Shown: positions 9,917-36,671, numbered from the stretch's first letter. The stretch: 64,000 nucleotides of DNA from an uncultured virus (IMG/VR IMGVR_UViG_3300024314_000003) (IMGVR_UViG_3300024314_000003); one strand, 5' to 3'. Notes: a model not told the origin generated them from the letters alone. Program-made: numbers and translations.

Positions 9917-10372
9917 ATGAAGTTCAGAAGACTTGCTGATAAGTCGCAAATTGATTTAGCGACATATCTGAAACAATACATAAAAAGAAATTCCAATAAT
10001 TCAATTCGAATTTACGTAGGATGTGATTCACATGTAAAGGGTGAGTTTACAACATACGTAAGCACGGTTGTAATTCATGTTGGAAATACTGGATGCCATG
10101 TTCTTTATAAGAAGGAAAAGGTAGAACCTATTCGAGATATGTGGAGAAAGTTATGGGGAGAAGTTGAAAGATCCGTCGAAGTTACACAATATCTTCGGGA
10201 TAATGGGATAAATATACATACAATTGATTTAGACCTCAACCACCAAGAACAACACGCTTCTAATAAAGTAGTTAACGCTGCGATAGGTTATGTTAAGTCT
10301 CTTGGAATTAAAGTAAGAATAAAGCCAGATATCTTACCTGCAATAGCAGCCGCAGATAATCTGTCAAAATAA
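9917..10372 (+). CDS. RNase H-like YkuK/DUF458-family protein
   Basis: IYVGCDSH, KLWGEVERS, IDLDLN and KPD..AA..ADNL motifs. Confidence 0.75.
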   Translation: MKFRRLADKSQIDLATYLKQYIKRNSNNSIRIYVGCDSHVKGEFTTYVSTVVIHVGNTGCHVLYKKEKVEPIRDMWRKLWGEVERSVEVTQYLRDNGINIHTIDLDLNHQEQHASNKVVNAAIGYVKSLGIKVRIKPDILPAIAAADNLSK

Positions 10373-10420: not shown

Positions 10421-12424
10421 ATGGCAGAACAATTTGAAAATCCAGGAAAAGGCGGTAAAAGAAAAACACCTTACGTTGATGAGTATGGAGAAGACCTAAC
10501 AGCTGAAGCTGCAAAAGGAAATCTAGATCCTATTATCGGAAGGGAAAAAGAAGTGTATAGAATTTGCCAAATCCTATCGAGAAGAAAGAAGAATAATCCT
10601 ATTATTTTAGGAGATCCTGGTGTAGGTAAGACTGCGTTAGTAGAGGCGATTGCACAAAGAATCGTAGATAAGAAAGTAGCAAGAACTCTTTTAAAGAAAA
10701 GAATAGTTTCTATCAATATTTCTAATATCGTAGCAGGTACAAAATATAGAGGTGAGTTTGAAGAAAGAATGAAACTTATCGTTGAGGAATTAAAGAATAA
10801 CAAAGACATCATTGTTTTTATCGATGAATTACATACAATCGTTGGAGCAGGTGGTGTTAGTGGATCTTTAGACGCTTCAAATATATTAAAACCTGCATTA
10901 GCGAGAGGACAAGTACAATGTATTGGTGCAACTACTTTAGATGAATATAGAGAAAATATTGAAGATGATGGTGCACTTACTAGAAGATTCCAAGAAGTAT
11001 TTATAGATCCACCTAGCGAGGAAGATACTATCGAAATCTTACAAAGAATTAAAGGAAACTATGAAGATTATCATGCAGTTGAATATACTGATGATGCACT
11101 AGAAGCATGTGTCTCTCTTTCTACAAGGTATATTACAAGTAGAGAACTTCCTGATAAGGCTATTGATTTAATGGATGAATCAGGTGCAAAAGTTCACTTA
11201 AGCGAAATCAAAGTACCTGTGCATATTAAAAGAGCGGAGACTGAGGTAGAAGCTTTAACACTTGACAAATTAAAGGCAGTTGAAGAACAAGACTATGAAA
11301 AAGCTGCTCACTTTAGAGATAAAGAAATTCAATCTAAGAATTTAATTGAAAAGAAAATATCTGCATGGGAAAAGTCACTAAGAGATAAAAAGAAAAAAGT
11401 AACAGCCGAAGATATTGCTGAAACTATTTCACAAGCAACAGGAATTCCTGTAACAAGAATGACAGGTGATGAAAGTAAAATAATCCTAGCAATGGAAACA
11501 GAGCTTAAGAAAATGATTATTGGACAAGATCAAGCAGTAGACGCACTCTCTAAGGTAATTAAAAGATCAAGAACTGGTGTATCATCTGCTAAAAAACCTA
11601 TAGGTTCTTTTATGTTCTTAGGACCAACTGGTGTTGGTAAAACAGAAACAGTAAAGGCGATTACTAATTATTACTTTGGATCAGAAGATCATTTAATTAG
11701 AATTGATATGAGCGAATACATGGAAAAGTTTGCAGTATCAAGATTAATTGGTTCTCCTCCTGGATATGTTGGTCATGAAGATGGCGGTCAATTAACAGAA
11801 CAGGTTAGAAGAAGACCTTATTCGGTTGTACTTTTCGATGAAATTGAAAAAGCACACCCTGATGTATTCAATACTTTACTACAAGTATTAGACGAAGGAA
11901 GATTAACAGATTCATTAGGAAGAACAGTTGACTTTACGAATACGATTATCATTATGACATCTAATGTCGGTGCTAAAAAAGTAAGTGAGTTCGGAACGGG
12001 TATTGGATTTGAAACTAAGAAATCTTCAATCGCTGGAAGAAAAGCACACACTGAAGCTATCATCGCAAAGGAACTTAAAAATAAGTTTGCACCGGAATTT
12101 TTAAATAGATTAGATGATGTAGTATTATTCGACCAATTAAAGCATGAAGATATTCTTCAAATTGTTGATATTGAAGTTAGACACCTGGTAATTAGAATGT
12201 TTGATCAGAAATATAATATTAAAGTTACTAAGCAAGCAAAGGAATTCTTAGCAGAAAAAGGATATGATCCTGATTATGGTGCAAGACCCTTGAAGAGAGC
12301 GGTTCAAACTTACATTGAAGATCTTTTAGCGGATGCTATTATTAAAGGAGAAATAGTTAGAGGAGACGAGGTGTACACAATCAATCATACGAAGAAAGAA
12401 GATAAACTTTCTATTAAAAAGTAG
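10421..12424 (+). CDS. clpC: ClpC-type Clp ATPase lacking the N-terminal Clp-repeat domain
   Basis: Two AAA+ modules (GDPGVGKT, GPTGVGKT), UVR-like middle domain (EEQDYEKAAHFRD) and ClpP-docking GIGF loop; 667 aa, starting just before NBD1. Confidence 0.92.
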   Translation: MAEQFENPGKGGKRKTPYVDEYGEDLTAEAAKGNLDPIIGREKEVYRICQILSRRKKNNPIILGDPGVGKTALVEAIAQRIVDKKVARTLLKKRIVSINISNIVAGTKYRGEFEERMKLIVEELKNNKDIIVFIDELHTIVGAGGVSGSLDASNILKPALARGQVQCIGATTLDEYRENIEDDGALTRRFQEVFIDPPSEEDTIEILQRIKGNYEDYHAVEYTDDALEACVSLSTRYITSRELPDKAIDLMDESGAKVHLSEIKVPVHIKRAETEVEALTLDKLKAVEEQDYEKAAHFRDKEIQSKNLIEKKISAWEKSLRDKKKKVTAEDIAETISQATGIPVTRMTGDESKIILAMETELKKMIIGQDQAVDALSKVIKRSRTGVSSAKKPIGSFMFLGPTGVGKTETVKAITNYYFGSEDHLIRIDMSEYMEKFAVSRLIGSPPGYVGHEDGGQLTEQVRRRPYSVVLFDEIEKAHPDVFNTLLQVLDEGRLTDSLGRTVDFTNTIIIMTSNVGAKKVSEFGTGIGFETKKSSIAGRKAHTEAIIAKELKNKFAPEFLNRLDDVVLFDQLKHEDILQIVDIEVRHLVIRMFDQKYNIKVTKQAKEFLAEKGYDPDYGARPLKRAVQTYIEDLLADAIIKGEIVRGDEVYTINHTKKEDKLSIKK

Positions 12425-12451
12425 TATAATAATAAACTAATAACTTATTAA

Positions 12452-13351
12452 ATGAATTTTTCAAGTCAATTCTCAAAAACAATTACAAACATAGACGATA
12501 TAGGAAGTGTATCACAACCACGTGATATGAAAGTAAAGGAATTAGCCCTTACAACTTTACCTATAGATCCTTACATGCCTATTGCTAATTTTGAAAATAG
12601 AAAATTCAACTGGAAATACTTTGCAGGTGAATTAACATGGTATCTACGAAAAGATAACGATGTAGATTATATAGGTCAATTTTCAGGATTCTGGTCTACA
12701 TTAACTAATCCTAATTCAAATGAAATTAACTCAAACTACGGTTCACTATTATTTAATGAACAATTAGAATGGGTTGTAGATTCATTAAAAGCGGATCAAA
12801 ACACGAGACAGGCGATAGCATTTCTTAATCAACCCAAATTTCAGTTTGAAGGTAATAAAGATTTTGTATGTACTATGTACTTAAATTTCTTTATTAGAAA
12901 TAATCAATTGAATATGAAAGTTCAAATGAGATCTAATGATGTGTTCTATGGATTAACGTTTGACGCACCTTTCTTTGCATTCGTTCACCAACATGTTCAT
13001 CTATGGTTAAAAGACACATACCCTGAACTAGACCTAGGAGTATATTACCATTGTGCAGATAACTCTCATTTCTACGAAAGACACTTCGAATTAGCAGCTA
13101 AAATTCAACAAGAAATTATAGAAGATTCTACACAATACGCAATGATAATAGATCAACCATTCTTTACCATTGAAGCGGGTAAGATGCTATTAACAGATCA
13201 TGGATTATCCTTTATAGAAAAAGTAAACGAGACTATAGAAACTGAAAAACCTACACAGAAAGAATTCAGACAAATTCTAGAATCATTCGCAGGTATTATT
13301 AATGAAGAAGAACTCATAGGAAAGGATGGAATACCCGAAATTCAGGATTAA
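12452..13351 (+). CDS. thymidylate-synthase-fold enzyme, possibly dCMP hydroxymethylase
   Basis: Catalytic Cys (FVCT), MRSNDVFYGLTFD and HFYERH; Asp at the position of the ThyA dUMP-specificity Asn. Confidence 0.8.
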   Translation: MNFSSQFSKTITNIDDIGSVSQPRDMKVKELALTTLPIDPYMPIANFENRKFNWKYFAGELTWYLRKDNDVDYIGQFSGFWSTLTNPNSNEINSNYGSLLFNEQLEWVVDSLKADQNTRQAIAFLNQPKFQFEGNKDFVCTMYLNFFIRNNQLNMKVQMRSNDVFYGLTFDAPFFAFVHQHVHLWLKDTYPELDLGVYYHCADNSHFYERHFELAAKIQQEIIEDSTQYAMIIDQPFFTIEAGKMLLTDHGLSFIEKVNETIETEKPTQKEFRQILESFAGIINEEELIGKDGIPEIQD

Positions 13352-13628
13352 CACTAGGACGATGGAACTGGGTTCCTTGGAAGATGGCATAGATGACATT
13401 GTCGGTTTTCATTTAAATATCGTACAACACATAGAAGATACTATTGATGGAATATCAATGAAAGGAAATATACTATGTAAATTGATAGATGAACAAGGAA
13501 ATGAGTATGAATCCCTCTTGGATGAAGATAGATATAATAAGTCTTTGCAAAAATCTCTAGAATTTTTTAAAGAAAGAGAAAATTACGAAAAATGTAAACA
13601 CATCACAGACTTGCTAAATAGAATATAA
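13326..13628 (+). CDS. small protein with C-terminal UVR-like motif
   Basis: FFKERENYEKCKHI. Confidence 0.7.
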   Translation: MEYPKFRINTRTMELGSLEDGIDDIVGFHLNIVQHIEDTIDGISMKGNILCKLIDEQGNEYESLLDEDRYNKSLQKSLEFFKERENYEKCKHITDLLNRI

Positions 13629-13636
13629 ATTCAATA

Positions 13637-14476
13637 ATGAAGTACGGGCTTGAAGGATTTAATAGAGTCGCTAGAACCACATCAAAATGGTTCTCTCGAC
13701 TCTTACGAGTATTCGAGAGACAGAAAAGAATTGACTGGACTAAGTATATTGACGACACCGTAGTTATTCATCTAGCATACAGGAAAGATAGATTAAAAAT
13801 AGCAGAGAAGAGAGCATCTTCCCAAAAACTAAAGGGACGTAAAACATTACTAGATCATTTAAGATTCTTTGACGCAATAGAAGGAAAAAGAATAAAGTGG
13901 TTTTCTAAAAAAATACACATTAACAAATATCCATTTTCATTTCACTGGGAAATAGATCCTTCTCCCGGAATGAAAAATAAATTAAAAAGAAATAATAAGA
14001 TATTATGTTCTTCTGCTGAAACTGGAATCGCATTTTCACACTATAGAATTTGGAAAGAAATTGTAGAGAATAAAACACCAGTCACCCTCATAATGGAAGA
14101 TGACTTTGAATTTTGTCATAAATTTCAAGATAAAATAGAAAGCATATTTGAAAAAGAACTTCCTAATGATTGGGATTTATTGTATCTTTCTAGTTTGCCA
14201 AATCAATTTGGATTTACATGGGATCCTCATTCCCAAAATCTATCACGGTTATATAATGGAGTATGGTGGTTATCTGGTTATGTATTAACATACGAAGGAG
14301 CTAAGAAATTATTAGAAGGTTTGCCTATTGTCGGCCCAGTTGACGTATGGATTAATTATCAATTCAAAAACATGCAAGTGTATATGACTAATCATAATCT
14401 AATAACACAAGGAGATGATACCGAATCTGATAATACTTATTCTTATGTTGAAACATTTAAGGATAACTTAATATAA
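13637..14476 (+). CDS. glycosyltransferase family 25-like
   Basis: VIHLAYRKDR, FFDAIEG, GIAFSHYRIWK, LIMEDDF, DWDLLYL, GYVLTYEGAKKLL and PVD motifs. Confidence 0.85.
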   Translation: MKYGLEGFNRVARTTSKWFSRLLRVFERQKRIDWTKYIDDTVVIHLAYRKDRLKIAEKRASSQKLKGRKTLLDHLRFFDAIEGKRIKWFSKKIHINKYPFSFHWEIDPSPGMKNKLKRNNKILCSSAETGIAFSHYRIWKEIVENKTPVTLIMEDDFEFCHKFQDKIESIFEKELPNDWDLLYLSSLPNQFGFTWDPHSQNLSRLYNGVWWLSGYVLTYEGAKKLLEGLPIVGPVDVWINYQFKNMQVYMTNHNLITQGDDTESDNTYSYVETFKDNLI

Positions 14477-14504
14477 TATTAAAATAATACACACAAAGAA
14501 TTAT

Positions 14505-15173
14505 ATGAATTACGGAAAAGAATTTGAAAAGTATGCGATGAGTGATCATAATGTTTCATCATCTAAATTAAATTACTATGAGAAGCAGATTGAAAACTCG
14601 TTAACTCCATATATCTTAGAAGAAAGAGAGTTAAGAGCTACTCAGATGGATATCTTTTCTAGATTAATGATGGATAGGTTATTATGGGTTGCAGGACCTG
14701 TTAATGATAATATGTCTACGATTGTTCAAGCACAGTTGATGTTTTTAGACTCAGTTGGAGGAACAGATATTACGATGCATATTGATTCTCCAGGTGGAAG
14801 TGTTAAAAGTGGACTTTCAATGGTTGATGTTATGGATTACATTAAGTCAGATATTAAAACAGTAAATACTGGTATGGCTGCATCAATGGGTTCTGTTTTA
14901 TTAGGAGCAGGAACTAAGGGAAAAAGATCTTCACTTAGACATTCTACTACAATGTTACACCAATCCTCTGGTGGATTTAATGGTAATATTCAAGATGCTG
15001 AAATAGATTGGAAAGAATGGCAAAAAGTAAATAAAGAATTATTTAATCTTTTAGGAGAATATTGTGGAAAACCAGCTGACGAAGTAATGAAAGATGCGAC
15101 TAGAGACTTTTGGTTAAATGCAAAAGAAGCTAAAGCTTATGGTATTATTGACGAAATCATCGGGAAATCTTAA
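14505..15173 (+). CDS. clpP: ATP-dependent Clp protease proteolytic subunit
   Basis: IDSPGGSV, GMAASMG (Ser), MLHQ (His), RDFW (Asp); Bacteroidota-type N-terminus. Confidence 0.96.
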   Translation: MNYGKEFEKYAMSDHNVSSSKLNYYEKQIENSLTPYILEERELRATQMDIFSRLMMDRLLWVAGPVNDNMSTIVQAQLMFLDSVGGTDITMHIDSPGGSVKSGLSMVDVMDYIKSDIKTVNTGMAASMGSVLLGAGTKGKRSSLRHSTTMLHQSSGGFNGNIQDAEIDWKEWQKVNKELFNLLGEYCGKPADEVMKDATRDFWLNAKEAKAYGIIDEIIGKS

Positions 15174-15185
15174 TATATAAATTAT

Positions 15186-15383
15186 ATGAAAATTCATATT
15201 TACGTAAAAACGCAAGATTTAGACTCTCTTAATAAGATATTAAGTGATCCTTTTTCGGAGACGACGAAAGAGTTTGAATTTTTAAATACACCGGCAAAAG
15301 ACTTCACCATGATCTCTTTAACCTATGACGAATGGATTAGGTTACAGGATATGGATGCACTAATTACAATACTATCATTATGA
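15186..15383 (+). CDS. hypothetical protein (likely paralog of 32725..32949)
   Basis: IHIYV..DLD.L...ISLTYDEW pattern. Confidence 0.6.
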   Translation: MKIHIYVKTQDLDSLNKILSDPFSETTKEFEFLNTPAKDFTMISLTYDEWIRLQDMDALITILSL

Positions 15384-15691
15384 GAAACAGAGACATTGAA
15401 AGAGAATTATTTATTGAGCTAATCAATCATCAATTAAAAGATCATGGGGTAACCTATGATGATGTTAAGGACAATCCACAATGGTATATGGAATATAAAA
15501 CTACTCAAGAAAAAGAGCAAAAGTTTATAAAGCATATTACAGAAACTGTTGTTAACACATTAGGATTAGACATCAAACAAGCTGAGAAAGAAGCACAGTG
15601 GTTTATTCTACAATGGGGATTAGCAGTTATTCCAACCGAACAAACTCCACCTAAAAAAGCTTCTAAAAAGAAGACATCTTCTAAAAAATAA
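15380..15691 (+). CDS. hypothetical protein
   Basis: 103 aa, ATGA overlap with the upstream ORF, basic tail. Confidence 0.7.
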   Translation: MRNRDIERELFIELINHQLKDHGVTYDDVKDNPQWYMEYKTTQEKEQKFIKHITETVVNTLGLDIKQAEKEAQWFILQWGLAVIPTEQTPPKKASKKKTSSKK

Positions 15692-15723
15692 AATACACGC
15701 GTGGAATTTTAGATAAATATTCC

Positions 15724-16410
15724 ATGAATGTATTAGATCCAAATTGGCTCACTATCGAGCCTCATGATTTTGAATTAAAATACTATAAACTCTTAGCAGC
15801 TGAGAACACTTTTAATAAGATTCTCAAAGATGGAGGCTTAATATCCATACTCGATGAAGTAGAAGATCATCTACTTGAAATGTATAAAATTAAGCACAGG
15901 AAGGAGGAGATAGACGTTAATTTAAGAGTTCTCAAGGGAATCAACCTTGACACAATGTCTTTAGAATATGAATATCCAGAAGGAGATAAACATATAGAAG
16001 ACATGTATAAGCTTTGTGATAAAGCTATAGATATATTAGAAGATATACATAAAAATGTAAGGGTAGTATTTAGATTAGTCGAGAAGGCTATTAACATTAC
16101 AGAAATTCCAGATATTAAAAGAACTAAAAAACTAGGATATGCTTTAGTGAAAACTCCTGAAGATATCATGCAAATATATTCTTTTAAAGTTCCTTCTTTA
16201 TTGACAGAAAACTGGAAAGATTTAAATCTAAAATATGAAGGAGAAACAGTGTATGATATAAGAGCAATTTCTCTTTTTATTACAAAGGTACAAGATGAAA
16301 GTTCTGATTATAGGTTTTTTAGATGCAGTGTTAATTCAGAATTCGATATGAATGAAAGGGTATTGCCAGTATTAAAATTTAAGCTTTACAATCATTTAAG
16401 AGCAAATTAA
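15724..16410 (+). CDS. hypothetical protein
   Basis: 228-aa ORF, co-oriented with neighbours. Confidence 0.7.
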   Translation: MNVLDPNWLTIEPHDFELKYYKLLAAENTFNKILKDGGLISILDEVEDHLLEMYKIKHRKEEIDVNLRVLKGINLDTMSLEYEYPEGDKHIEDMYKLCDKAIDILEDIHKNVRVVFRLVEKAINITEIPDIKRTKKLGYALVKTPEDIMQIYSFKVPSLLTENWKDLNLKYEGETVYDIRAISLFITKVQDESSDYRFFRCSVNSEFDMNERVLPVLKFKLYNHLRAN

Positions 16411-16448
16411 TCAAGATATATAGTTTATAAAAACAAAATAGTTTAAAA

Positions 16449-17675
16449 ATGCCACAGGTTACGCAAGAAGATATTATTGGATATATTGATAACACAATAG
16501 ATGTTATACAGGGAGACTCACAAGTCTACACAGTAAAACTATATAGAGATAGGGTAGGTGGAAATCTTAATACATCACTATATTCTACATTTACTATGAA
16601 TTTATTAGATGAATCGTCTGATTTAATCGCACAATATTCAATGCCTAGAGTATACGGAGTTTCAGGAGATCTTATATTAGTAAATGACGATCCAACTACA
16701 CAGGCTGTTTTTCAATTTGAATTATCAAAACTACAAACATTAAATCTTCCTGCTGGAAAAATATACGTAAACATAGTAGTGACTAATTCTAGAATAGAAC
16801 CTACTAAGGTTTATTCTTTACCTAACATGGAAATTGGATCTATTTTATTTAATGAAAACAGACACGATCCTTCTCTGTATAAATCTACTCAAAGAAGTTC
16901 GGGAATAGGTGTATCTTCGTCCATGGATCCATATTATAAAGTTCAACATATCGATGGTTCAGTTCCTATTGGACAAGGAAGCTTATCTTTAGATTCAGGA
17001 TCCCCTGGTCTAGTAACTAAAATGACATTTATGAATAGTGACTACGATGGAATTAGAGTAAGTGTTTTAGAAAACTTTTTAATTAACAGAATAGATAAAG
17101 ATGGAATTGAAGGTACGATTACATTAATAAACAGAAGCGATACCGCTCAATATTCTATTTTTAATGTAGTAGACTGGTACAGAATCAACTGTTCTTCTGG
17201 AGAATGTATTGACGACATCGATGATGCAATACAGGTTATAGTATCTCACGAAATGTCGACTGAAGGACCTGGTGTATATAAAAATAATTGGCTAGTTACG
17301 GACGAAGTTTCATTTAAACTAGATGTATATGGTTCAGCATTATCTTCAACTGATCTAGGTAAGAAATCTAGCACAGTACTAGATAAAGAATTAATTCCAA
17401 ATAATACATCTGGAAATGTATCTAGAACTGGAGTCATATTATCGGTTACACCGCAAGATGGCCAATACATTGACGTTGAAATTAATGGTATTTCTATTTC
17501 ATTAGGAGACGGAACTAAAAACCTAGATGGTTACTTTTCATCAGATGGAGGAACTACTGCTAGAACATTCCAAGATATCCGAGTAGGTGATGAATTAATC
17601 TTTAACTCGATAGTCGCGGGATATGAGCTCACTGATGAAGATAGAGTCTCTTTATTCTACGAATCTTATTCTTAA
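16449..17675 (+). CDS. putative virion structural protein
   Basis: Class III motif at 16415; C-terminal domain (NG..YFSSDGG..AGYEL) shared with 21818..22594. Confidence 0.6.
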   Translation: MPQVTQEDIIGYIDNTIDVIQGDSQVYTVKLYRDRVGGNLNTSLYSTFTMNLLDESSDLIAQYSMPRVYGVSGDLILVNDDPTTQAVFQFELSKLQTLNLPAGKIYVNIVVTNSRIEPTKVYSLPNMEIGSILFNENRHDPSLYKSTQRSSGIGVSSSMDPYYKVQHIDGSVPIGQGSLSLDSGSPGLVTKMTFMNSDYDGIRVSVLENFLINRIDKDGIEGTITLINRSDTAQYSIFNVVDWYRINCSSGECIDDIDDAIQVIVSHEMSTEGPGVYKNNWLVTDEVSFKLDVYGSALSSTDLGKKSSTVLDKELIPNNTSGNVSRTGVILSVTPQDGQYIDVEINGISISLGDGTKNLDGYFSSDGGTTARTFQDIRVGDELIFNSIVAGYELTDEDRVSLFYESYS

Positions 17676-17845
17676 TAATATATTATCTTAGTATTATAAG
17701 AAAAACGTAAAAACGTAAATACGTAAAATTTAATTAATTTTATTAAGATATTATATACTTTTTTACCCCCCACGAATAAACGTATTAATATATAATCCAA
17801 TCCTACAATAATGTAGGGTGTGCAAAAAATAATTATATAAATAAT

Positions 17846-19618: not shown

Positions 19619-19661
19619 TCTAAACTTCGGTTTAAATTATTAGCTTAATGCTTAATTGATT

Positions 19662-19690
19662 AAAGGCTCCTCGGAAGAGGAGCCTTTTTT
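19662..19690 (+). terminator. intrinsic terminator
   Basis: AAAGGCTCCTC-GGAA-GAGGAGCCTTT followed by T's. Confidence 0.85.
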
Positions 19691-19727
19691 ATTTAAAATA
19701 TATAGTAAAACAAAATATCGGTTTAAC

Positions 19728-20915: not shown

Positions 20916-20927
20916 ACATAATAAATA

Positions 20928-21698: not shown

Positions 21699-21817
21699 TA
21701 CGTAAAATAATATCTTATACTATAGATTCTGGGACCTTTATCCCATCAATTTATAATATATAAGATTGAGTGGAATTATTCCACATTTAAAATAAATAAA
21801 AAAAAATGTAACTATTC

Positions 21818-22594: not shown

Positions 22595-22614
22595 AAAAAA
22601 TAAATTATTAAAAC

Positions 22615-28173
<5,559 letters not shown>

Positions 28174-28197
28174 TTTAAATCATCAAGATAATTTTAG

Positions 28198-28227
28198 AAA
28201 GGGTCCTCGAAAGAGGACCCTTTTTTT
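28198..28227 (+). terminator. intrinsic terminator
   Basis: AAAGGGTCCTC-GAAA-GAGGACCCTTT followed by T's. Confidence 0.88.
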
Positions 28228-28321
28228 ATGTGATATATAGATTGTAATAACTTATTATCTTATTACACTTAGTAAACAATTTAAAATATCTAAGTATAAC
28301 TAATATTATAGAACACAATCG

Positions 28322-29254
28322 ATGGATAATAAAATCAAACATGATACGTTTAACAAGAATGTAAAATTCTATGTGGAAAGCGTAACTAAGAATACAGACA
28401 CATATACTCTTAATGGATGGGTTGGATTAATAGGCGGAGAAGCTTTAGGCTTTTCAATGTCAAATGAACCTCTTAAAGTTCAATTTTTAGGTGATAGGCA
28501 AGACGTAATGGAAGTATATTCAAATCAGCTTACTAATCAGAATATGTCATTTACTATTGAGGTTCCTTTTGATAAAAAACTAAAAACACTAGTCATCCAT
28601 ACTAGTATTGGAGAAACTGCAATAGGTCCAATCGGACACTGGTTATCGTATCATTCAGGATTTGCAAATACATCAAAGGATGTTATAGTAGTAGATAATT
28701 TTTATAATGATCCTGACCTTGTAAGAGAATGGGCAATGAACCATTTAGAATTTACACCTTCCGATTATCACAAGGGCCAAAGAGCAAATGAAAGATTTAT
28801 CTTAGATGGAACTAAAGAAAAACTAGAAGAAATTATAGGAAAACCAATATTCAATTGGAATCACGACAGGTATGCTAACGGAATATTTCAATTTTGTACA
28901 GCAGATCAACAGATTGTTTATCACGTGGATAATCAAACTTATGCAGCAATGGTATATTTAACACCTGACGCTCCACCTACATCTGGAACTGCGTTCTATA
29001 GAAGTAAAGTCACGGGTGATTATACATTCGATGACGATAAAAGAAAAACCCAAGCATACATAGATGCATTCAAGGGTAATAGTAATGAAATGAATTTTTA
29101 CGATGGATCTAATTTTGAAAAAATAGATGAAGTAGGAAATGTGTATAATAGATTAGTCTTGTTTAATGCTAAAAATATCCACGCTGCGACTCAGTATTTT
29201 GGAGATGCAATTGACAATGCTAGATTTTTTCACATGTTCTTTTTTGACGTATAA
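28322..29254 (+). CDS. 2OG-Fe(II) oxygenase-like protein (C-terminal domain)
   Basis: VIVVDNFY, HxD (YHVD), AMVYLTP, SGTAFY, YNRLVLF, distal His (IHAA) and ARFF..FFF. Confidence 0.7.
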   Translation: MDNKIKHDTFNKNVKFYVESVTKNTDTYTLNGWVGLIGGEALGFSMSNEPLKVQFLGDRQDVMEVYSNQLTNQNMSFTIEVPFDKKLKTLVIHTSIGETAIGPIGHWLSYHSGFANTSKDVIVVDNFYNDPDLVREWAMNHLEFTPSDYHKGQRANERFILDGTKEKLEEIIGKPIFNWNHDRYANGIFQFCTADQQIVYHVDNQTYAAMVYLTPDAPPTSGTAFYRSKVTGDYTFDDDKRKTQAYIDAFKGNSNEMNFYDGSNFEKIDEVGNVYNRLVLFNAKNIHAATQYFGDAIDNARFFHMFFFDV

Positions 29255-29268
29255 AAACAAATATAAAT

Positions 29269-31143
29269 ATGAAGATTAATATTATTACAAGGTGTACCAG
29301 AACAAGTAACCTTTTAACAATTAAAGAAGGAGTATTAAATGCGCCTAAGGGAGTAACAGTAAATTGGCACATTGTATTTGATACAGGAGCATTAAAGGAT
29401 ATTGATGCAGAGGTTCTCTCGAACTTAACAGATACTGTCAATGTCAAATTACATTTTGTAAAAGGACAAAGAGGAGGATTATTATATCCTGAAGTTTCTG
29501 ATATTATTAGAACAATCAAATCAGGTTGGATCTATTTACTAGATGATGATAACATTATACACGAAGACTTTTACAAAACTATTAAAGCGAGTATAAAGAA
29601 TCTTCCAATTGCACAGGTTCATATCGTTTCTCAATTAGTTGCAGGTAGAGATTTTACCGGACAAGAAATTAGAGTAGCTAGTCGTGAAAATACTGCATTT
29701 CAGAAAATTGACATTGCACAGATGGTTATTAATAGAAGCATATTTGATACTCATTCGTTTAGTGCAAATTATGCAGCAGACGGTTTCTTTATAGAAGAAG
29801 TATTAAAAACACATGGTGATTCATTCGTATGGATTGACAAGGTTTTATGCCACTACAATTATTTAGAAAAAGTACCAAGTGCAAAAATACCTAAAATAAT
29901 TTATATAGGAAAAACTAAGCCAGAATTAAAGTCTATAAAATATTTATCGTATGAAGCAGATGAATTAGACGTTAAATACTTAGAAGACGATAGTGAAGTA
30001 ATTAACGCAGTTACGTCGTTTAATCCTGATGCAATTATTACAAATGGAGAATCATGGAAAGAGTTTCCTAACCTAGCTTCTCTTCCTCTCCAATTTAGAA
30101 AAAGGTGGTTTAATTCTGAGAACACGGAAAATATAGGAAACACTGCATATTCCGTAGCAATGAATTCTATTCTATCTCCTTCTAACCTAGAAGATGATCA
30201 GATGATTTCATTCTTTACGCCTATATATAATACTGGTGAAAAGTTATGGAACACATATAGATCCGTAAGAGATCAGACGTATAATAACTGGGAATGGGTT
30301 TTAGTAAATGATTCCACCGATGGAGGTAAAACTTTAAAGATAGCAGAAGAAATTGCGTTAGTAGATCCAAGAGTAAAGGTGTATGATTTTAGAGAAAAAT
30401 CAGGAGGATGTATTGGAGAATCTAAATACAGATGTTGTTCTCTTGCTAAAGGATATATTCTAGCAGAATTAGACCATGATGACTTATTGGTTAAAACATG
30501 TGCAGAAGATTTACATAATGCTGCACAGGCACATCCTGATTGTGGTATGTTTTATGGAGATACTGCCGAGGTAAATGAAGAGTGGGAAAATCAAAGATAT
30601 GGAGAAGGGTTTGCATTAGGATATGGTTCTTATAGAGAAGAAGAGTATGAAGGTAGAATGTTGTCACCTGCTAATCAACAGAATATTAATCCAAAAACAA
30701 TCAGACATATTGTAGGAGTTCCAAATCACGTTAGAGCATGGAGAAGATCTACTTATTTTGAAATAGGAGGACATAACAGAAGTCTAACAATTGCAGATGA
30801 TTTTGAATTAGTGATCAGAAGCTTCCTATATTCTAAGATATGTAAAATACCTAAACTAAGCTATATTCAATTTCTCTATAATAATCAAGGTGGAAGAAAC
30901 ACTCATGATTTATCAAGAGCAGACATTCAAAGAAGAGTTAGAACAATAGCACAATATTATAATGAACAAATCAACGCTAGATTTATTGAATTAGGAATAG
31001 AAGATTGGGCATATAATGAAAGCCCTGACTATCCTATCTCAGCAGAGTCAAGATATGGAGAAGAAGAAGGAGTTGCTAACGAAACATACGCTGAAAAATC
31101 AGGAGTTGAAAAAAAAGTAACTAAATTAGAAAAAGTAAAATAA
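29269..31143 (+). CDS. multi-domain glycosyltransferase (two GT2-like domains)
   Basis: N-terminal LLDDDN..ADG domain; C-terminal FTPIYN, WEWVLVNDS, ELDHDD and ADDFEL. Confidence 0.85.
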   Translation: MKINIITRCTRTSNLLTIKEGVLNAPKGVTVNWHIVFDTGALKDIDAEVLSNLTDTVNVKLHFVKGQRGGLLYPEVSDIIRTIKSGWIYLLDDDNIIHEDFYKTIKASIKNLPIAQVHIVSQLVAGRDFTGQEIRVASRENTAFQKIDIAQMVINRSIFDTHSFSANYAADGFFIEEVLKTHGDSFVWIDKVLCHYNYLEKVPSAKIPKIIYIGKTKPELKSIKYLSYEADELDVKYLEDDSEVINAVTSFNPDAIITNGESWKEFPNLASLPLQFRKRWFNSENTENIGNTAYSVAMNSILSPSNLEDDQMISFFTPIYNTGEKLWNTYRSVRDQTYNNWEWVLVNDSTDGGKTLKIAEEIALVDPRVKVYDFREKSGGCIGESKYRCCSLAKGYILAELDHDDLLVKTCAEDLHNAAQAHPDCGMFYGDTAEVNEEWENQRYGEGFALGYGSYREEEYEGRMLSPANQQNINPKTIRHIVGVPNHVRAWRRSTYFEIGGHNRSLTIADDFELVIRSFLYSKICKIPKLSYIQFLYNNQGGRNTHDLSRADIQRRVRTIAQYYNEQINARFIELGIEDWAYNESPDYPISAESRYGEEEGVANETYAEKSGVEKKVTKLEKVK

Positions 31144-31760
31144 TGGGAAAATACGTAGAAATTTTAGATGCAAGCGATTGGGATGCATGGTGTGACAAAT
31201 ACATCGATCCCCTTTTAAGAAAAGGAGAATATGAACTCATAGTTGACGAAGCGGCTCCGAGTGTTTTAGTATTTCCTTTATTTAAAGAACAGTTTTGTAA
31301 AGATCTAATTGAACTATGTGAAACTGAAGGAGAATGGACAGTAGATAGACATGAATTTTATCCAACAACCGACATGCTCATTGACAAAGTATGGATGAAT
31401 GAAATTTACTCAAAGGTTCTTAACGAATTTGTTAGGCCATTAGGAATATGGTTCTGGACTTTAGAAGGAAAGCAGTGGAATTCTATGTCAGATGAAACAT
31501 TTATTGTAAAGTATACTACAGAAACACAAGCGCACCTTTCTCTTCACCATGATAATAGCCATTTAACAACTGTTGTTAGAATGAATGAAGATTTTACAGG
31601 AGGTGGAACTTATTTCCCATTATATAAGGCAAATATTAGTCCTCCTAGAGTTGGAATGGCAGCTTTACACCCAGGTGCAATTACACATAGACACGGTGCA
31701 AAGCCTATTTTTTCAGGAACAAGGTATATTACTGTAAGTTTCTGTAAGATGAGTGGATAA
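31143..31760 (+). CDS. PLOD-like (procollagen lysyl hydroxylase-type) 2OG-Fe(II) dioxygenase
   Basis: FPLFKEQFC, PTTD, FIVKY, LSLHHDNS, GGGTYF, LHPGAITHRHG and GTRYITVSF parallel the PLOD catalytic domain (FVVRY..LRPHHDSS..GGG..HPGRLTHYHEG..GTRYIMVSF). Confidence 0.8.
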   Translation: MGKYVEILDASDWDAWCDKYIDPLLRKGEYELIVDEAAPSVLVFPLFKEQFCKDLIELCETEGEWTVDRHEFYPTTDMLIDKVWMNEIYSKVLNEFVRPLGIWFWTLEGKQWNSMSDETFIVKYTTETQAHLSLHHDNSHLTTVVRMNEDFTGGGTYFPLYKANISPPRVGMAALHPGAITHRHGAKPIFSGTRYITVSFCKMSG

Positions 31761-31767
31761 ATAGAAT

Positions 31768-32721
31768 ATGAAGCAAATACAATCATTCAACCAATTTATT
31801 AACGAAAGCCTAAACGAAGATACTAATGATCTTTTTAAAGTTTATCTAGCAATTGATCCCGACTCAGGTCACAGGTGGTGGTCTTATAAAGGATTTGCGT
31901 CAGATAATTTCTTTATACAAATCAATAAAGACAATTATAAAGACATAGATATTAATCCAGACTATCCTATATTAACCTATAATTCAGGAGTAGTTGAAAC
32001 CCTTTTAAAGGAAGGATTAGTTAAAAAAGAAAATGTATATAATAGACCAGAATTCATTAAGCAATCTGGATCTAAGGCAGAGTTTCATAAAATAGTCGAT
32101 GGAGATGAAAACATTCCACAAACATGCCATGACGAGAAAGAAGCTTTAGAAATTGGTTTTCCATTAATTGCAAAGCCAGCTGAAGGACATTCAGGTATTG
32201 GAATTCAGGTTTTTAAATCTCAGGAAGATTGGGATAAAGCTGATCATTCTAAATTTGACGTATATTCCGAATTCGTAGATAAGAAATCAGAGCATAGAAT
32301 AATTAACTTTAAAGGAGATGCTTTCTTTTGGATGGAAAGAGAACCATTAAATGATAAAGCAAAATCAGGTGATGGTGACGGAAAAGAAGAAATGAATTTT
32401 AAATATATCAAAAGAGATATTACAACTCTTCCTGAAAAATTTAAAACACTAATAGAAAAATTCTGTGATAAGTTTAAAGATTTACCATATATATGTTTTG
32501 ATATAATGGAAGATCAAGAAGGAAAATTGTATATTATAGAAAGTAATTCTCAACCTGGAGTTCCTTATGATTCTACTGTGCAAATATACCGTAAAATATT
32601 TAAAGACTTTTACGGAAGAGAAGTAAACAAAGATACTGACAAGGCCCTAACAAAATTATCTAATGATTTAGATAAAAAAACTATAGAACTTGACAGCGAA
32701 CGATTCGAAATAAAAGAATAA
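31768..32721 (+). CDS. ATP-grasp ligase-like protein with N-terminal CTS-like peptide
   Basis: FPLIAKPAEGHSGIGI, EHR, CFDIM and IIESNSQPG (ExNxxP) motifs. Confidence 0.8.
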   Translation: MKQIQSFNQFINESLNEDTNDLFKVYLAIDPDSGHRWWSYKGFASDNFFIQINKDNYKDIDINPDYPILTYNSGVVETLLKEGLVKKENVYNRPEFIKQSGSKAEFHKIVDGDENIPQTCHDEKEALEIGFPLIAKPAEGHSGIGIQVFKSQEDWDKADHSKFDVYSEFVDKKSEHRIINFKGDAFFWMEREPLNDKAKSGDGDGKEEMNFKYIKRDITTLPEKFKTLIEKFCDKFKDLPYICFDIMEDQEGKLYIIESNSQPGVPYDSTVQIYRKIFKDFYGREVNKDTDKALTKLSNDLDKKTIELDSERFEIKE

Positions 32722-32724
32722 ATT

Positions 32725-32949
32725 ATGGCATATCCGGATATGACTTGTATGCATGTGAACTTATGGGTTCATCACATGGACATTGACAAACTGTTTGACT
32801 TTATAACAGAAAGAATTAAAGAACCACCTAGCTATTGGATTTCTAGAGAATCTTGTCCTTCTACAATTACAGGAGGATATGCAGAAATTAACGTATCATA
32901 TAACACATATCTTATGATAAGACGTGTTAAAGAACACGGACACTTTTAA
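32725..32949 (+). CDS. hypothetical protein (likely paralog of 15186..15383)
   Basis: VNLWV..DIDKL...INVSYNTY pattern. Confidence 0.6.
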   Translation: MAYPDMTCMHVNLWVHHMDIDKLFDFITERIKEPPSYWISRESCPSTITGGYAEINVSYNTYLMIRRVKEHGHF

Positions 32950-33005
32950 TTGAAACAATTCCAAATGGAAGTGTATAGTTAAGTATAGTTAATAAACTTC
33001 CAAGT

Positions 33006-33473
33006 ATGAATAGATTATGGTTACGATTTGCACTGTGTATTTACGCAATATTATATACAGTGTGTCTGCCATTAATCCTAGGCATAGAGGATAGTTATAG
33101 TGATTATCATCAATTAAAACCAATCTTATTCCCTTTATTAACAATAGGAGTTTCATTAGGATTATGGCTTCATCGTTCTATTGAATGGAAAATACCGGCA
33201 TTCTTATTAATAATCATAGCAAGCTTTAGCGTTGCAAATTACCCTACAATACATAATATATCTGCTATTCTATTTTTTATGTCATCGACATGGATCATGC
33301 TCTTTGATAAAAGATTTAAAATCTTTGGAATAATATCTGCAATATTATATCCAACACTCTTTATAAACACTGAACAGAATTTATTCTTGTTTGAAGTGTT
33401 ACAGATACCTATTCTTTCCTTTTATCATTTCTCTAGAGTAGTATACTTAATGAGATTAAAGAAGAAAATATAA
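33006..33473 (+). CDS. multi-pass membrane protein
   Basis: About five hydrophobic segments; class II promoter at 32953. Confidence 0.75.
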   Translation: MNRLWLRFALCIYAILYTVCLPLILGIEDSYSDYHQLKPILFPLLTIGVSLGLWLHRSIEWKIPAFLLIIIASFSVANYPTIHNISAILFFMSSTWIMLFDKRFKIFGIISAILYPTLFINTEQNLFLFEVLQIPILSFYHFSRVVYLMRLKKKI

Positions 33474-33502
33474 ACAATTACACATATTTGAGTATAATCT
33501 AT

Positions 33503-33751
33503 ATGGCAAAGAAGAAAAAGAAGCTAGAGATTATTCACGTTAAGAAGCCAATTATTGGCGAAACGTACTATTTCTATTTCGCAGGATCATGGGAAGTAGG
33601 AAAGTTAGAAGGTACCTCTGACAAATTAACAGAAACATACGGCCATCGATGGTTTACATTTGTTAATGGAAATTATGGAAGACAAATGAGATATCCAGTC
33701 TCTATTTATAATATTAGAAAAACTCACCCAAAACAAGAAAAAGATGTATAG
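33503..33751 (+). CDS. hypothetical protein
   Basis: Probable ATG at 33503 after a class II promoter (33472-33498). Confidence 0.65.
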   Translation: MAKKKKKLEIIHVKKPIIGETYYFYFAGSWEVGKLEGTSDKLTETYGHRWFTFVNGNYGRQMRYPVSIYNIRKTHPKQEKDV

Positions 33752-34487
33752 TATTTCAGATTTAAAAAACATGTTATTTATTGACATTGAAACGTCAACT
33801 GCTGCAAAGGACTTAGATAGCTTTGCAGAGATTATTGGAGAAAATGCATACTCACACTGGGAAAAGAAAGCAAAGTATGGTAGACAAAGTAAATCAGAGT
33901 ATGAAGGAGTTTCAGATGCTGATATGTATATCAAGGATGCTGCCCTTTATCCTGAATTCGGAAGAGCAGTAGTTATTACAATCGGACAAGTCACCTTCCC
34001 AGATGGCATTACACCTACCCCTAAGATAAAGTCTTTTTATGGAGATGATGAAAAGAATACTCTAAAGGAATTTATGGATACGATGGCATTAATCTTTAAG
34101 GCAAATCCTAAAATTCAAATAGTAGGTCATAACATTAAAGGCTTTGATATGCCTTACTTAATTAAAAGATCCATTATTCAAGGTGTAGAAATTCCACAAC
34201 AATTACACTTACAAAAACTTAAGCCATGGGAGAATTGTCTATTAGACACTAATGAAATATGGAAATTTGGCGGATGGAATGGTGCATCTCTTTCTATGAT
34301 CTGTGATCTTTTACAGATACCTTCTCCTAAACAAAACATGTATGGTGGTGAAGTATCAGAAGCGTATTACGCTGGAAGATTAGAAGAAATTAAAGACTAT
34401 TGTGAAGATGATGTTATTGGAACTATGAACGTGATGTTAAAGATGTCAGATATGGAACTAGTATCTAAGGTTGAAGCTCCATTTTAA
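33744..34487 (+). CDS. PolB-related DEDD 3'-5' exonuclease
   Basis: FIDIET, GHNIKGFDMPY and YCEDDV motifs. Confidence 0.85.
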   Translation: MYSISDLKNMLFIDIETSTAAKDLDSFAEIIGENAYSHWEKKAKYGRQSKSEYEGVSDADMYIKDAALYPEFGRAVVITIGQVTFPDGITPTPKIKSFYGDDEKNTLKEFMDTMALIFKANPKIQIVGHNIKGFDMPYLIKRSIIQGVEIPQQLHLQKLKPWENCLLDTNEIWKFGGWNGASLSMICDLLQIPSPKQNMYGGEVSEAYYAGRLEEIKDYCEDDVIGTMNVMLKMSDMELVSKVEAPF

Positions 34488-34500
34488 TTTAAACTTTTTT

Positions 34501-34560
34501 GAAAATAAACAGTTAAAAGTTTTTTTATCTCAGAAATTTTGCTTATATTAGTATAGTAAT
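34501..34560 (+). promoter_or_regulatory. Class I repeated promoter element
   Basis: GAAAATAAACAGTTAAAAGTTTTTTTATCTCAGAAATTTTGCTTATATTAGTATAGTAAT. Confidence 0.75.
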
Positions 34561-34575
34561 TAAAAATAAAGAAAT

Positions 34576-34860
34576 ATGTTTGAAGACTTCGAAGACCAAA
34601 ACAACGATGAGCACGATGAAATAGCTCAAATTCAAAAAAATGCAGATATGGAAAATAACCTTCACGAACTGAAAGATAAACTAGTTAGAAATAACTGGGA
34701 TATGATCTTAGAAAAAGGAGTTGACTTTAAATCAATGCAAGACAACGGCATAGAAATAGAACCGATTATCAGAACATTACAGCAAATGTTAGATTGGTTT
34801 CAGGAATCTGAAGAATATGAAAAATGTGCACATCTTAAAAATATTCTAGACAATAAATAA
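34576..34860 (+). CDS. small protein with C-terminal UVR-like motif
   Basis: WFQESEEYEKCAHLK. Confidence 0.75.
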   Translation: MFEDFEDQNNDEHDEIAQIQKNADMENNLHELKDKLVRNNWDMILEKGVDFKSMQDNGIEIEPIIRTLQQMLDWFQESEEYEKCAHLKNILDNK

Positions 34861-34878
34861 AATGTGTATAAATATATC

Positions 34879-35073
34879 ATGGAAGAACAATTATTAAAAG
34901 TCATTGCGGAGCAACTTACGAGAATTGCAGATCTTATGGAAAACCAACAGAAAAGAGATGTGGTTGAAAAAAGAAAGAGCATTAAAGTCGTTAAGGAAGC
35001 CGTAAAGAAAAGAAAGAATGAACTACTACGAACTGCTGCAGATAGACAAGTCAGCAAGCCAAGCCGAGATTAA
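34879..35073 (+). CDS. small coiled-coil hypothetical protein
   Basis: MEEQLLKVIAEQLTRIADLME; overlaps the dnaJ-like start by 56 nt. Confidence 0.5.
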   Translation: MEEQLLKVIAEQLTRIADLMENQQKRDVVEKRKSIKVVKEAVKKRKNELLRTAADRQVSKPSRD

Positions 35074-35818
35074 GAAGGCCTATCGTAAACTAGCAAAGCA
35101 ATATCATCCCGATACCGTCGAAGGGGATGAGTCTTCCTTTAAAGAAATAGTTACAGCATACGAGGTTTTATCTGACGAGAACAGAAAAAGAAAGTATGAT
35201 ATTGAATTAGGATATAAGTCTTCTGACAATCCATTTCATAGTTGGTTTCAAAACGGAGAAGGATCCTTCAGTGATATGTTCAATGATGCGTTTGGTTCCT
35301 CTTCAAAAGGAAGAGACGTTACGGTTAGAATGACAATAACCCTAGAAGAATCTTATCATGGAACCCAAAAGAGAGTAGACATAGGTTCTAAAAAACTAAA
35401 CGTTAATATACCTAAAGGAGTTTATGAAGGTATGAAGTTAAAAATTAGTGGAAAAGGTCAACCTCATCCTGCTAATTCATCTGCACCCAAAGGAGATCTA
35501 ATCATTATAATTAATTTAAAATATGATGATAGGATTATATTAAACGGAAATGACATCTATGTAGATGCAAATGTTTCTTTTTATGATATGATTCTAGGAA
35601 CTGAAATAGAAATCAATACGCCTTTTTATAAAATAAAGGTAAATGTTCCTCCAAATTCACAGAATAATAAGATATTAAGAATAAGTGGTAAAGGATTCCC
35701 GATATATAGTATGAATACTTATGGTAACCTTATGGTGAAGTTAAATGCATTTAATCCACCCCTTAAAGATTCACAAATAGAACTAATAAAAAAAATAAAA
35801 GAAATAGACAATGAATGA
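35018..35818 (+). CDS. dnaJ: DnaJ/CbpA-type co-chaperone (no zinc finger)
   Basis: J-domain NYYELL..EIKKAYRKLAKQYHPD plus a DnaJ C-terminal domain. Confidence 0.9.
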   Translation: MNYYELLQIDKSASQAEIKKAYRKLAKQYHPDTVEGDESSFKEIVTAYEVLSDENRKRKYDIELGYKSSDNPFHSWFQNGEGSFSDMFNDAFGSSSKGRDVTVRMTITLEESYHGTQKRVDIGSKKLNVNIPKGVYEGMKLKISGKGQPHPANSSAPKGDLIIIINLKYDDRIILNGNDIYVDANVSFYDMILGTEIEINTPFYKIKVNVPPNSQNNKILRISGKGFPIYSMNTYGNLMVKLNAFNPPLKDSQIELIKKIKEIDNE

Positions 35819-36116
35819 TTTACCAGATTTTGACGAATGGGATAATTCAGATACCAATAGAAATAATCCAGAATTTGAAGTTAACAACAGCGTAGAATCA
35901 ATCGCGTTTATTGAAAAATTGAAATCATCATCCAAAGAGATAATGATGGACTTAATTTATAAGGCTATAATTGAAAATGAAATGGGAGCATTAAACAATA
36001 ATTCTCCTAAAGAAGAAAAAATAGCAGCACTAGAAACGGTTATCAAATATTTCGCAGAACAAGAAGAATATGAAAGATGCCATGAACTTAAAAAAATCAT
36101 AAGCAATATATGTTAA
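35811..36116 (+). CDS. small protein with C-terminal UVR-like motif
   Basis: YFAEQEEYERCHELK. Confidence 0.75.
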   Translation: MNDLPDFDEWDNSDTNRNNPEFEVNNSVESIAFIEKLKSSSKEIMMDLIYKAIIENEMGALNNNSPKEEKIAALETVIKYFAEQEEYERCHELKKIISNIC

Positions 36117-36307
36117 TAATTAATGTAGATAAAGGGAATATAGAAAAAGCTTTAAAACAGTATAAGCGTAAAACCATTAAGACCAAACAGATGAAAAAGG
36201 TTAGAGATGAAAAGCAATATACGAAGCCCTCTGCATTAAAGAGACTTAAGTTCCAAAAGGCAATATATCTTCAAAAGAAATCTAACGCCGAAAACAAGGA
36301 CAAGTAG
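36110..36307 (+). CDS. rpsU: ribosomal protein bS21
   Basis: MLIINVDKGNIEKALKQYKRK..YTKPSALKR..QKAIY, a Flavobacteriales-type S21. Confidence 0.9.
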   Translation: MLIINVDKGNIEKALKQYKRKTIKTKQMKKVRDEKQYTKPSALKRLKFQKAIYLQKKSNAENKDK

Positions 36308-36413
36308 AAATATAATAACATATTTTTTTACTTCATTTTACCTTAGACCTTACCGGAATTAAATATATAAATTGAGATTATTAATATCTCGATATAAAAA
36401 AATATACTTTGTA

Positions 36414-36671
36414 ATGAAGGAATCTTTTAGTGATGACAAAGACGCATTGATGAGATCAAGCTATTATACTATCACAAGAAATTTTACTAAAACCATTAAT
36501 AGATTTGTTGTATTCAGCGAAGGCAAGAATACGATAGAAATCCCTCATGGCGAAGGACAAAGAAGCAAGTTCATAGATATTATTATAGAATATTTTGAAG
36601 AACTTGAGGAGTATGAAAAATGTGATACGTTATTGCAGCTTAAAAAAACGGTAATAATGGCAGGAGACTAA
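36414..36671 (+). CDS. small protein with C-terminal UVR-like motif
   Basis: YFEELEEYEKCDTL; probable ATG at 36414. Confidence 0.7.
   Translation: MKESFSDDKDALMRSSYYTITRNFTKTINRFVVFSEGKNTIEIPHGEGQRSKFIDIIIEYFEELEEYEKCDTLLQLKKTVIMAGD

Follow-up and report, generated by a model that had tools for sequence, protein, structure and literature searches.

The stretch of DNA analysed here, 64,000 nucleotides from an uncultured virus, a marine phage (IMG/VR IMGVR_UViG_3300024314_000003; hereafter the window), encodes a ClpC, a ClpP and four small proteins that end in the same cysteine-containing helical hairpin. We found that their genes are members of a large and unnamed family, restricted to viruses, in which the hairpin is grafted onto unrelated small acidic bodies. 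One of them, at 13326..13628, lies between clpC and clpP, and its counterparts in other phages follow a clpC whose product naturally lacks the N-domain. Most probably the hairpin serves as a portable module for docking to other proteins. Based on likeness to the ClpC M-domain tip, gene linkage and a weak structural model, we propose the clpC-linked protein as a candidate cap or regulator of the ClpC M-domain, with a probability of about 0.4. N-domain-less (N-less) phage ClpCs that keep the M-domain tip pose the question of how they are held on or off, and a phage-only family with a tip-like end is a concrete and cheaply testable candidate for a trans-acting switch. Even without a Clp link, the family comprises at least 750 clusters with an invariant Cys and has no name, Pfam model or known function.

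Four small proteins share a C-terminal Cys hairpin

The virus genome comprises 133,305 bp with a G+C content of 33%, and the window corresponds to its reverse strand. The pattern [FWY]F.E.E[EN]YE[KR]C has exactly four matches when all six frames of the window are read, and likewise four over the entire 133,305-bp genome. Calculated from six-frame residue frequencies, the chance expectation is 4e-7 matches, and 100 shuffles yielded none. All four matches lie 10–15 residues before the stop of an open reading frame (ORF) on the plus strand. No fifth copy was found with the looser core E[EN][YFW]E[KR][CAS] or with a hidden Markov model (HMM) of the tail. The initial annotation had described four small proteins with a shared terminal motif, and the genome-wide HMM count agrees with that number.

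Cys-hairpin protein 1 (13326..13628, plus strand) has 100 amino acids (aa) and an isoelectric point (pI) of 4.8. It is the copy linked to clpC and clpP, and in addition to the motif it has syntenic orthologues in loci L001–L014. Its terminal hairpin (aa 67–99; 13524..13622, plus strand) contains the turn R-E-N followed by Y87-E-K-C90; residues E85, Y87, E88 and C90 are invariant in a 24-row family alignment (A3). Cys-hairpin protein 2 (34576..34860, plus strand; 94 aa, pI 4.35) carries the motif behind an acidic N-terminus and has 17 close homologues. Cys-hairpin protein 3 (35811..36116, plus strand; 101 aa, pI 4.4) has orthologues in L089, L105, L123 and L158 that accompany its motif assignment. 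Cys-hairpin protein 4 (36414..36671, plus strand; 85 aa, pI 5.0), also identified by the motif, starts at the ATG at 36414 and not at the TTG at 36372, its orthologues beginning at the equivalent Met. All four proteins are acidic, with pI values of 4.35–5.0. The genes of proteins 2, 3 and 4 cluster with DnaJ, bS21 and PhoH, at a distance of >20 kb from clpC.

The AlphaFold2 model of protein 1 (predicted local distance difference test score, pLDDT, 84; predicted template modelling score 0.72) has a beta-alpha-beta-beta body followed by the terminal hairpin. Strands are predicted at residues 5–9, 49–54 and 60–64 and helices at 22–40, 67–83 and 87–99, and the hairpin reaches a pLDDT of 94. Protein 2 is predicted to be all-alpha (pLDDT 86), with helices at residues 6–47, 51–56, 62–77 and 81–92. 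Both models thus place the motif at a terminal helix-turn-helix of ~30 residues on different bodies. Comparison of six subfamily alignments by hhalign resulted in similarity confined to the last 25–35 residues, with probabilities of 81–98%. When the tails were removed, the probabilities stayed below 2%, with a single pair at 24%. From hhalign and AlphaFold2 together, the earlier description of one tail on unrelated N-termini is therefore right. Across viral contigs the N-terminal parts vary widely, in forms of 85 aa, ~100 aa and ~145 aa.

The hairpin family is large and found in viruses

An HMM built from the four tails retrieved small ORFs in other phage contigs, which gave the 24-row alignment A3, in which E, Y, E and C do not vary. 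In a search of 1.84 billion representative proteins, 750 clusters (50% identity) matched its profile at E<=1e-3, and 119 of them also at E<=1e-10. All of the 150 best-scoring clusters are 67–170 aa long, and in 140 of these 150 the match spans over 70 of the 104 positions of the profile. The sequence [YFW]E.C is present near the C-terminus in 144 of the best 150; most of the others retain the Cys with a changed neighbour. In a 148-row alignment the Cys is the sole invariant column, and the consensus of the tail reads [YF][FY]-E-x-x-E-[DE]-Y-E-x-C-x-x-[IL]-x-x-L. A scan made without regard to ClpC, using a degenerate DNA pattern of the motif over viral contigs, returned at least 121 stretches, and a family member is encoded by 112 of the 121 among the matches listed.

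Database searches with the family gave little annotation. PHROGs returned marginal matches only (E>=0.005), to families of unknown function, and a BFVD structure search returned uncharacterised proteins of uncultured phages only. No member was found by tblastn of three family members against 50,697 deposited phages; a Vibrio phage match at E 3 was rejected, as it falls inside a 650-aa gene. The nearest named cluster in the ESM Atlas is viral, ~100 aa long and carries UVR on 57% of its members (score 0.83), which we treat as a lead only. Our literature search found no paper describing the hairpin family or an N-less phage ClpC with such partners. Two other ideas about the proteins were dropped: a C-terminal degron, because the final residues are variable, and frataxin-like iron binding, because the order of the fold elements differs.

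Some features of the wider family were recorded on the way. The most frequent subfamily (~145 aa, in ~40 loci of L081–L160, e.g. L146:6428-6889) has the pattern P.FK.GMFKKLI.N ... YNRAW.YI ... YFE..EEYEKCA and lies in a conserved block of genes of unknown function that is unrelated to Clp, with DUF932 and T5orf172 proteins nearby. Chaperone genes recur beside hairpin genes, with DnaJ (J and C-terminal domain) in 7 loci and Hsp20 in 4 loci; examples are the window at 35018-35818, L097:9001-9819 and L158:4579-4953. In one complete ClpC-less genome of 168 kb with terminal repeats (G002), the two hairpin genes occupy opposite extremities of the record (C1:1518-1856 and 167718-168038).

Relation of the hairpin to the UVR motif

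The UVR motif (PF02151) occurs in the ClpC M-domain, the UvrB C-terminus, UvrC and McsA. In common with the viral hairpin it is a helix-turn-helix of ~30 residues whose turn carries an aromatic-Glu pair with a small residue after it, and the tail of the 34576 protein, SEEYEKCAHLKN, can be written in the same register as B. subtilis ClpC, SQEFEKAASLRD. The viral tail differs in that an invariant Cys replaces the first Ala, the Arg-Asp pair is unconserved, the score stays below the Pfam threshold and the hairpin is always C-terminal in small virus-only proteins. The UVR signature aromatic-E-x-A-A-x-x-R-D is not present; the family has Y-E-x-C-x-x-I-x-x-L with no conserved R-D.

The Pfam UVR model (gathering score 21.5 bits) matched none of the four window proteins at E<=1, none of the 24 sequences in A3 and 2 of the 148 relatives in A5, with a best E of 0.1. 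The family profile searched against PDB sequences gave a best E of 0.29, with no UvrB, ClpC or McsA among the matches. Foldseek against PDB returned nothing at E<=0.001, and VIA-align over 48,161 chains reached a best Z of 5.5, to generic helical bundles and tetratricopeptide repeats (TPRs). An HMM of the ClpC M-domain hairpin matched no small ORF at E<=0.1 in 80 clpC loci.

We also compared the family directly with ClpC. Against a 17-row alignment of phage ClpCs, hhalign chose the M-domain and placed EEYEtC on Q.YE.AA, at a probability of only 0.15%. With the tail only against the M-domain only, EEYEkC again fell on Q.YE.AA at a probability of 4.5% (P 0.009), and the score was equalled by 4 of 200 column shuffles. 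In this register the Tyr-Glu-x-Cys at the turn of the tail corresponds to the M-domain tip Q-x-[YF]-E-x-A-A, and the invariant Tyr takes the position of F436. By family tests the hairpin is not a member of UVR, and by alignment it appears weakly similar to the M-domain tip. Of the term UVR motif used in the initial annotation, the helical hairpin and the tip register stand, and the Pfam membership does not.

The phage ClpC naturally lacks the N-domain

The clpC gene (10421..12424, plus strand) encodes a protein of 667 aa with two AAA+ modules, a UVR-type M-domain and an IGF loop for docking to ClpP, and naturally without an N-domain. Pfam recognised AAA, AAA_lid_9, AAA_2, ClpB_D2-small and UVR, the last at aa 274–306 (the M-domain hairpin; 11240..11338, plus strand; PF02151, E 1.5e-5). 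Walker A motifs are found at residues 64 and 401, the IGF at residue 528 and AVEEQDYEKAAHFRD at residues 286–300. Pfam gave no match to Clp_N in this ClpC, residues 1–64 match nothing, and the frame is closed by an in-frame stop 5 codons upstream. ClpC Y292 (in QDYEKAA) aligns with F436 of B. subtilis ClpC, as query residue 38 falls on chain residue 436 in an alignment to the 810-aa chain of 3j3r; A295, A296, R299 and D300 are invariant in the ClpC alignment. Identity to bacterial ClpCs is 50–58%, and the closest cellular ClpCs are those of Bacteroidota (56–58%). With two AAA+ modules, the UVR M-domain in D1 and the IGF-type loop in D2, the window protein has the features of the ClpC class.

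The clpP gene (14505..15173, plus strand; 222 aa) lies 2 kb downstream of clpC and covers positions 5–181 of 182 of the PF00574 profile (E 7e-57). By eye, its translation shows the Ser, His and Asp motifs GMAASMG, MLHQ and TRDF, in which we take the triad residues to be those of E. coli ClpP. The initial annotation was correct in reading these genes as a ClpC that keeps its M-domain and IGF loop without Clp-N repeats and a ClpP 2 kb further on.

Linkage of the hairpin gene to clpC

Eighty phage loci were fetched with the ClpC protein, and their ClpCs were classed by the number of residues between the first Met and Walker A. A single tail gene on the clpC strand, 1–6 kb downstream of clpC, was present in 26 of the 80 loci. 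The ClpC of all these 26 loci is N-less, with 56–71 residues before Walker A (L063 was classed by ORF length). No tail gene was found within 10 kb in the other classes, namely N-less ClpC in 4 further loci (70–76 residues), short N-terminus ClpC in 10 loci (80–96 residues), long N-terminus ClpC in 32 loci (171–306 residues) and 8 loci with unclassified ClpC, which was truncated or failed the motif regular expression. Thus, N-less ClpC accompanies the tail gene in 26/26 loci, and the tail gene is found in 0/32 long-N loci. Pfam Clp_N was present in 6/6 sampled long ClpCs and in 0/3 short forms. Searched over whole records, 0/5 jumbo phages with a Clp_N-bearing ClpC contained a family member (positive controls 4/4). 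Loci L048, L057 and L066 contain ClpC-like frames of ~1200 aa in which the first Walker A was not recognised by the pattern; they may hold an insertion (e.g. an intein) or a fusion.

In a FastTree phylogeny of the ClpC core (midpoint root, no support values), the 26 tail-positive loci form two clades with Clp_N-bearing lineages between them. Clade A has the order clpC, thyA-like gene and small gene, and the small gene overlaps the start of clpP in L006 and L011; genomes of this clade contain 3–4 copies of the family. In clade B a kinase, an Rnl1 RNA ligase and a cREC_REC protein are encoded between clpC and the small gene. A clade-B genome of 335 kb (100% complete) has one family member, a few kb from clpC, and its clpP is 100 kb away. 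In the clade-B jumbo phages L055, L060, L061, L068, L073 and L076 (at about 12–15 kb in each locus), what follows clpC is an RNA-repair cassette, composed of an AAA_33 kinase, an Rnl1-type RNA ligase and a cREC_REC cyclic-phosphate receiver protein, with the hairpin gene after it.

Predicted complex of ClpC and the 13326 protein

The predicted complex between ClpC residues 1–350 (D1 and M-domain; A4) and the 13326 protein (A5) scored 0.46, and the best of 3 controls scored 0.04. Among solved complexes 116 of 157 attain the passing mark, as do 2 of 215 mismatched pairs; only 18 of the 157 solved complexes do so with a score <=0.60, a range that also contains both passing mismatches. Contacts agreed to 100% between the ClpC/13326 model runs, and the partner pLDDT was at least 82. 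The prediction gives weak support to binding of the 13326 protein to ClpC D1 and M-domain, and the score modestly raises the odds of such binding. The earlier claim of binding to ClpC is to this extent favoured by the model for the 13326 protein; contact of the tail with the M-domain is not contained in that score.

Possible role of the clpC-linked protein

ClpC is restrained by its N-domain and by M-domain-to-M-domain contacts; loss of this restraint is toxic, and inducing it is currently pursued as an antibacterial strategy. According to the available part of PMC12583610, S. aureus ClpC without its N-domain (delta-N ClpC) binds ClpP yet becomes proteolytic only on mutation of F436, and its hexamers pair head-to-head via the M-domains into rods. 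The same part of that source places F436 at the M-domain tip, where MecA covers it and where it mediates the head-to-head contacts between M-domains. It further describes a highly active, toxic protease when removal of the N-terminal domain (NTD) is combined with loss of F436, and binding of all characterised ClpC adaptors to the NTD.

A natural N-less ClpC with an aromatic tip would face the same rod lock as delta-N ClpC. The hairpin appears to copy the M-domain tip in shape and register, and for the 13326 protein, as for the analogous gene in the second clade, the partner would be the N-less ClpC of the phage itself. Because delta-N ClpC is locked until its tip is disabled, a small protein with a copy of the tip that caps the M-domain tip would switch the N-less ClpC on. 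The capping protein might also pass on cargo held by its N-terminal body. The family, the hairpin, its modular use and the gene linkage are established by the data above; we infer both the docking on the M-domain and the effect on activity. For the other three copies, in the DnaJ/bS21/PhoH cluster, the partner may be host ClpC or another protein. The proposal could be extended to the whole family, with the hairpin as a free-standing decoy of the tip, by means of which many aquatic phages would release ClpC-type unfoldases from their lock. Phages with a ClpC would then have swapped the repressive N-domain for an adjacent trans-acting cap, ClpC-less ones would target host ClpC, and the Cys would be a redox or metal sensor; we regard this extension as improbable.

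Several results weigh against the 13326 protein as an M-domain cap. The complex passed in the weak band, and its score concerns pairing and not M-domain contact. No more than two independent events underlie the two tail-positive clades, gene position within a clade being inherited synteny, and the two clpC-linked subfamilies are alike in the tail only. Four loci with N-less ClpC (L030, L031, L042 and L074) and the ten short-N loci have no tail gene within 10 kb, and five other phage records with N-less or short-N ClpC gave one weak family match (E 7e-4). In the ClpC-blind sample, ClpC lies within 10 kb in 7 of the 80 loci with flanks, among the matches listed. When 15 further records were searched over their entire length, ClpC was present elsewhere in 2 and absent from 13. 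Two of these 13 are G002 (168 kb with terminal repeats, 100% complete) and G011 (97% complete), which encode the family and neither ClpC nor ClpP, as confirmed by local HMM searches and with PF00574. Co-occurrence with N-truncated ClpC, which the initial annotation named as a check, therefore does not extend to the whole family, as 13 of 15 further records lack ClpC and many ClpC phages lack the family, and it holds for the clpC-adjacent subfamilies (26/26 N-less). Finally, the UVR resemblance is statistically feeble (0.15% and 4.5% in hhalign), and simple mimicry does not account for the replacement of the UVR Ala by a Cys that never varies.

A role unrelated to Clp, with the invariant Cys at its centre, is a serious rival, which we consider possible if doubtful. 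The hairpin would then serve self-association, metal or redox functions or other docking, the Cys would be functional, the nearness to clpC inherited and the UVR likeness generic. Such a role would fit a Cys that is invariant where any small residue would suffice, the lack of a significant UVR, UvrB, ClpC or McsA match in Pfam and PDB sequence searches, and best structural matches to generic bundles and TPRs (Z <=5.5). Most family members are away from ClpC, and the commonest subfamily (~145 aa) sits among unrelated genes, as this reading would have it. However, it has to accommodate the association with N-less ClpC (26/26 vs 0/32), the position of the sole copy in the 335-kb genome beside clpC, the register-correct alignment to the M-domain tip and a weak complex pass with clean controls.

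The presence of the family in ClpC-less phages would also be accounted for if the hairpin targeted host ClpC or another host UVR-type coiled coil, so that phages unlock, block or redirect host proteolysis. Small acidic proteins are usual for takeover, and there is a precedent in SPO1 Gp53 with B. subtilis ClpC (available part of PMC6873191). Among cellular ClpCs those of Bacteroidota come nearest (56–58% identity), so the likely host phylum would have a ClpC with a like M-domain, but ClpC similarity is a weak pointer to the host. Gp53 is said to bind the NTD of ClpC, unlike what is proposed here for the M-domain, and a host target leaves the exclusive tie of the clpC-adjacent copies to N-less phage ClpC unexplained; we find it unlikely. 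Least credible to us is the full proposal of the initial annotation, in which all four proteins would serve the phage ClpCP as plug-in adaptors, with the tail on the phage M-domain and each N-terminus recruiting a substrate at its own infection time. One tail type on four unrelated bodies in one genome, the 3–4 copies kept in clade-A relatives and the resemblance of the tail to the M-domain tip speak for it, as do the weak complex support for one of the four and an N-less ClpC without the usual adaptor site (adaptors bind the NTD in the available part of PMC12583610). Yet three copies are >20 kb from clpC among DnaJ, bS21 and PhoH, the complete clade-B phage with N-less ClpC has a single copy, and the promoter cited for the 34576 gene was not found. 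Moreover, tail proteins are plentiful in ClpC-less contigs and in two (near-)complete genomes without ClpC and ClpP; with ClpC near 7 of 80 loci among the matches listed, the family is far wider than ClpC, which an adaptor set for the phage's own ClpCP does not accommodate. Overall, the earlier interpretation is partly supported.

Comparison with known systems

MecA additionally requires the NTD, which is absent from the phage ClpC. As with MecA and the Bacillota ClpC adaptors, the proposed cap would be a small partner acting on the ClpC M-domain tip, where MecA covers F436 (available part of PMC12583610). It differs from MecA in that we found no sequence or fold likeness and binding is only weakly predicted. 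The S. aureus delta-N ClpC, as presented in that portion of PMC12583610, resembles the phage ClpC in the missing N-domain and the retained M-domain with its aromatic tip; the phage form is natural and occurs in several clades, whereas delta-N ClpC was engineered. SPO1 Gp53 is likewise a small phage protein proposed to modulate ClpCP, but it acts on the host ClpC of a Bacillus phage, and we detected no sequence relation (available part of PMC6873191). In plant plastids, CLPF, EXE1/2 and UVR2-4 are unrelated proteins with a common UVR hairpin that were trapped on CLPC1. In contrast to the viral proteins, these are cellular and carry true Pfam UVR domains, and the evidence in the available part of PMC8889267 is trapping and not direct contact between UVR and the M-domain.

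Neighbouring genes

Between 9 and 38 kb of the window every gene is on the plus strand. Directly 5′ of clpC (9239-10372) are a LOG/lysine-decarboxylase-like gene (PF03641) and an RNaseH-like PF04308 gene. A 151-aa ORF that is equal in length to one upstream of the window clpC also precedes clpC in L011, where it is unannotated. The interval between clpC and the small gene holds a divergent thymidylate-synthase-like gene (12452..13351, plus strand; PF00303, E 2.5e-16), which has the same place in L006; clade-A relatives retain it between clpC and the hairpin gene. Its product could be a pyrimidine hydroxymethylase, which would indicate modified DNA. A glycosyltransferase family 25 gene (13637..14476, plus strand; PF01755) is missing at this spot in the ORF maps of L006 and L011.

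In the distal cluster, a DnaJ-like co-chaperone with J domain and C-terminal domain (35018..35818, plus strand; PF00226, PF01556) has its end at 35818 overlapping the start of the hairpin protein 3 gene at 35811. A homologue of ribosomal protein bS21 (36110..36307, plus strand; PF01165, E 1.2e-9) follows, and the coordinates agree with the earlier statement that the genes at 35811 and 36414 flank bS21 next to DnaJ. The class I promoter that had been placed before 34576 was not detected in the 88-nucleotide spacer, either by a sigma-70-type scan or with a Bacteroidota-type pattern. Between structural-looking genes lies an ORF of 1852 aa (22615-28173) that consists mostly of collagen-like G-X-Y triplets with a non-repetitive C-terminal part. 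The G+C content climbs locally to 0.42 at this ORF, and its product is presumably a fibre.

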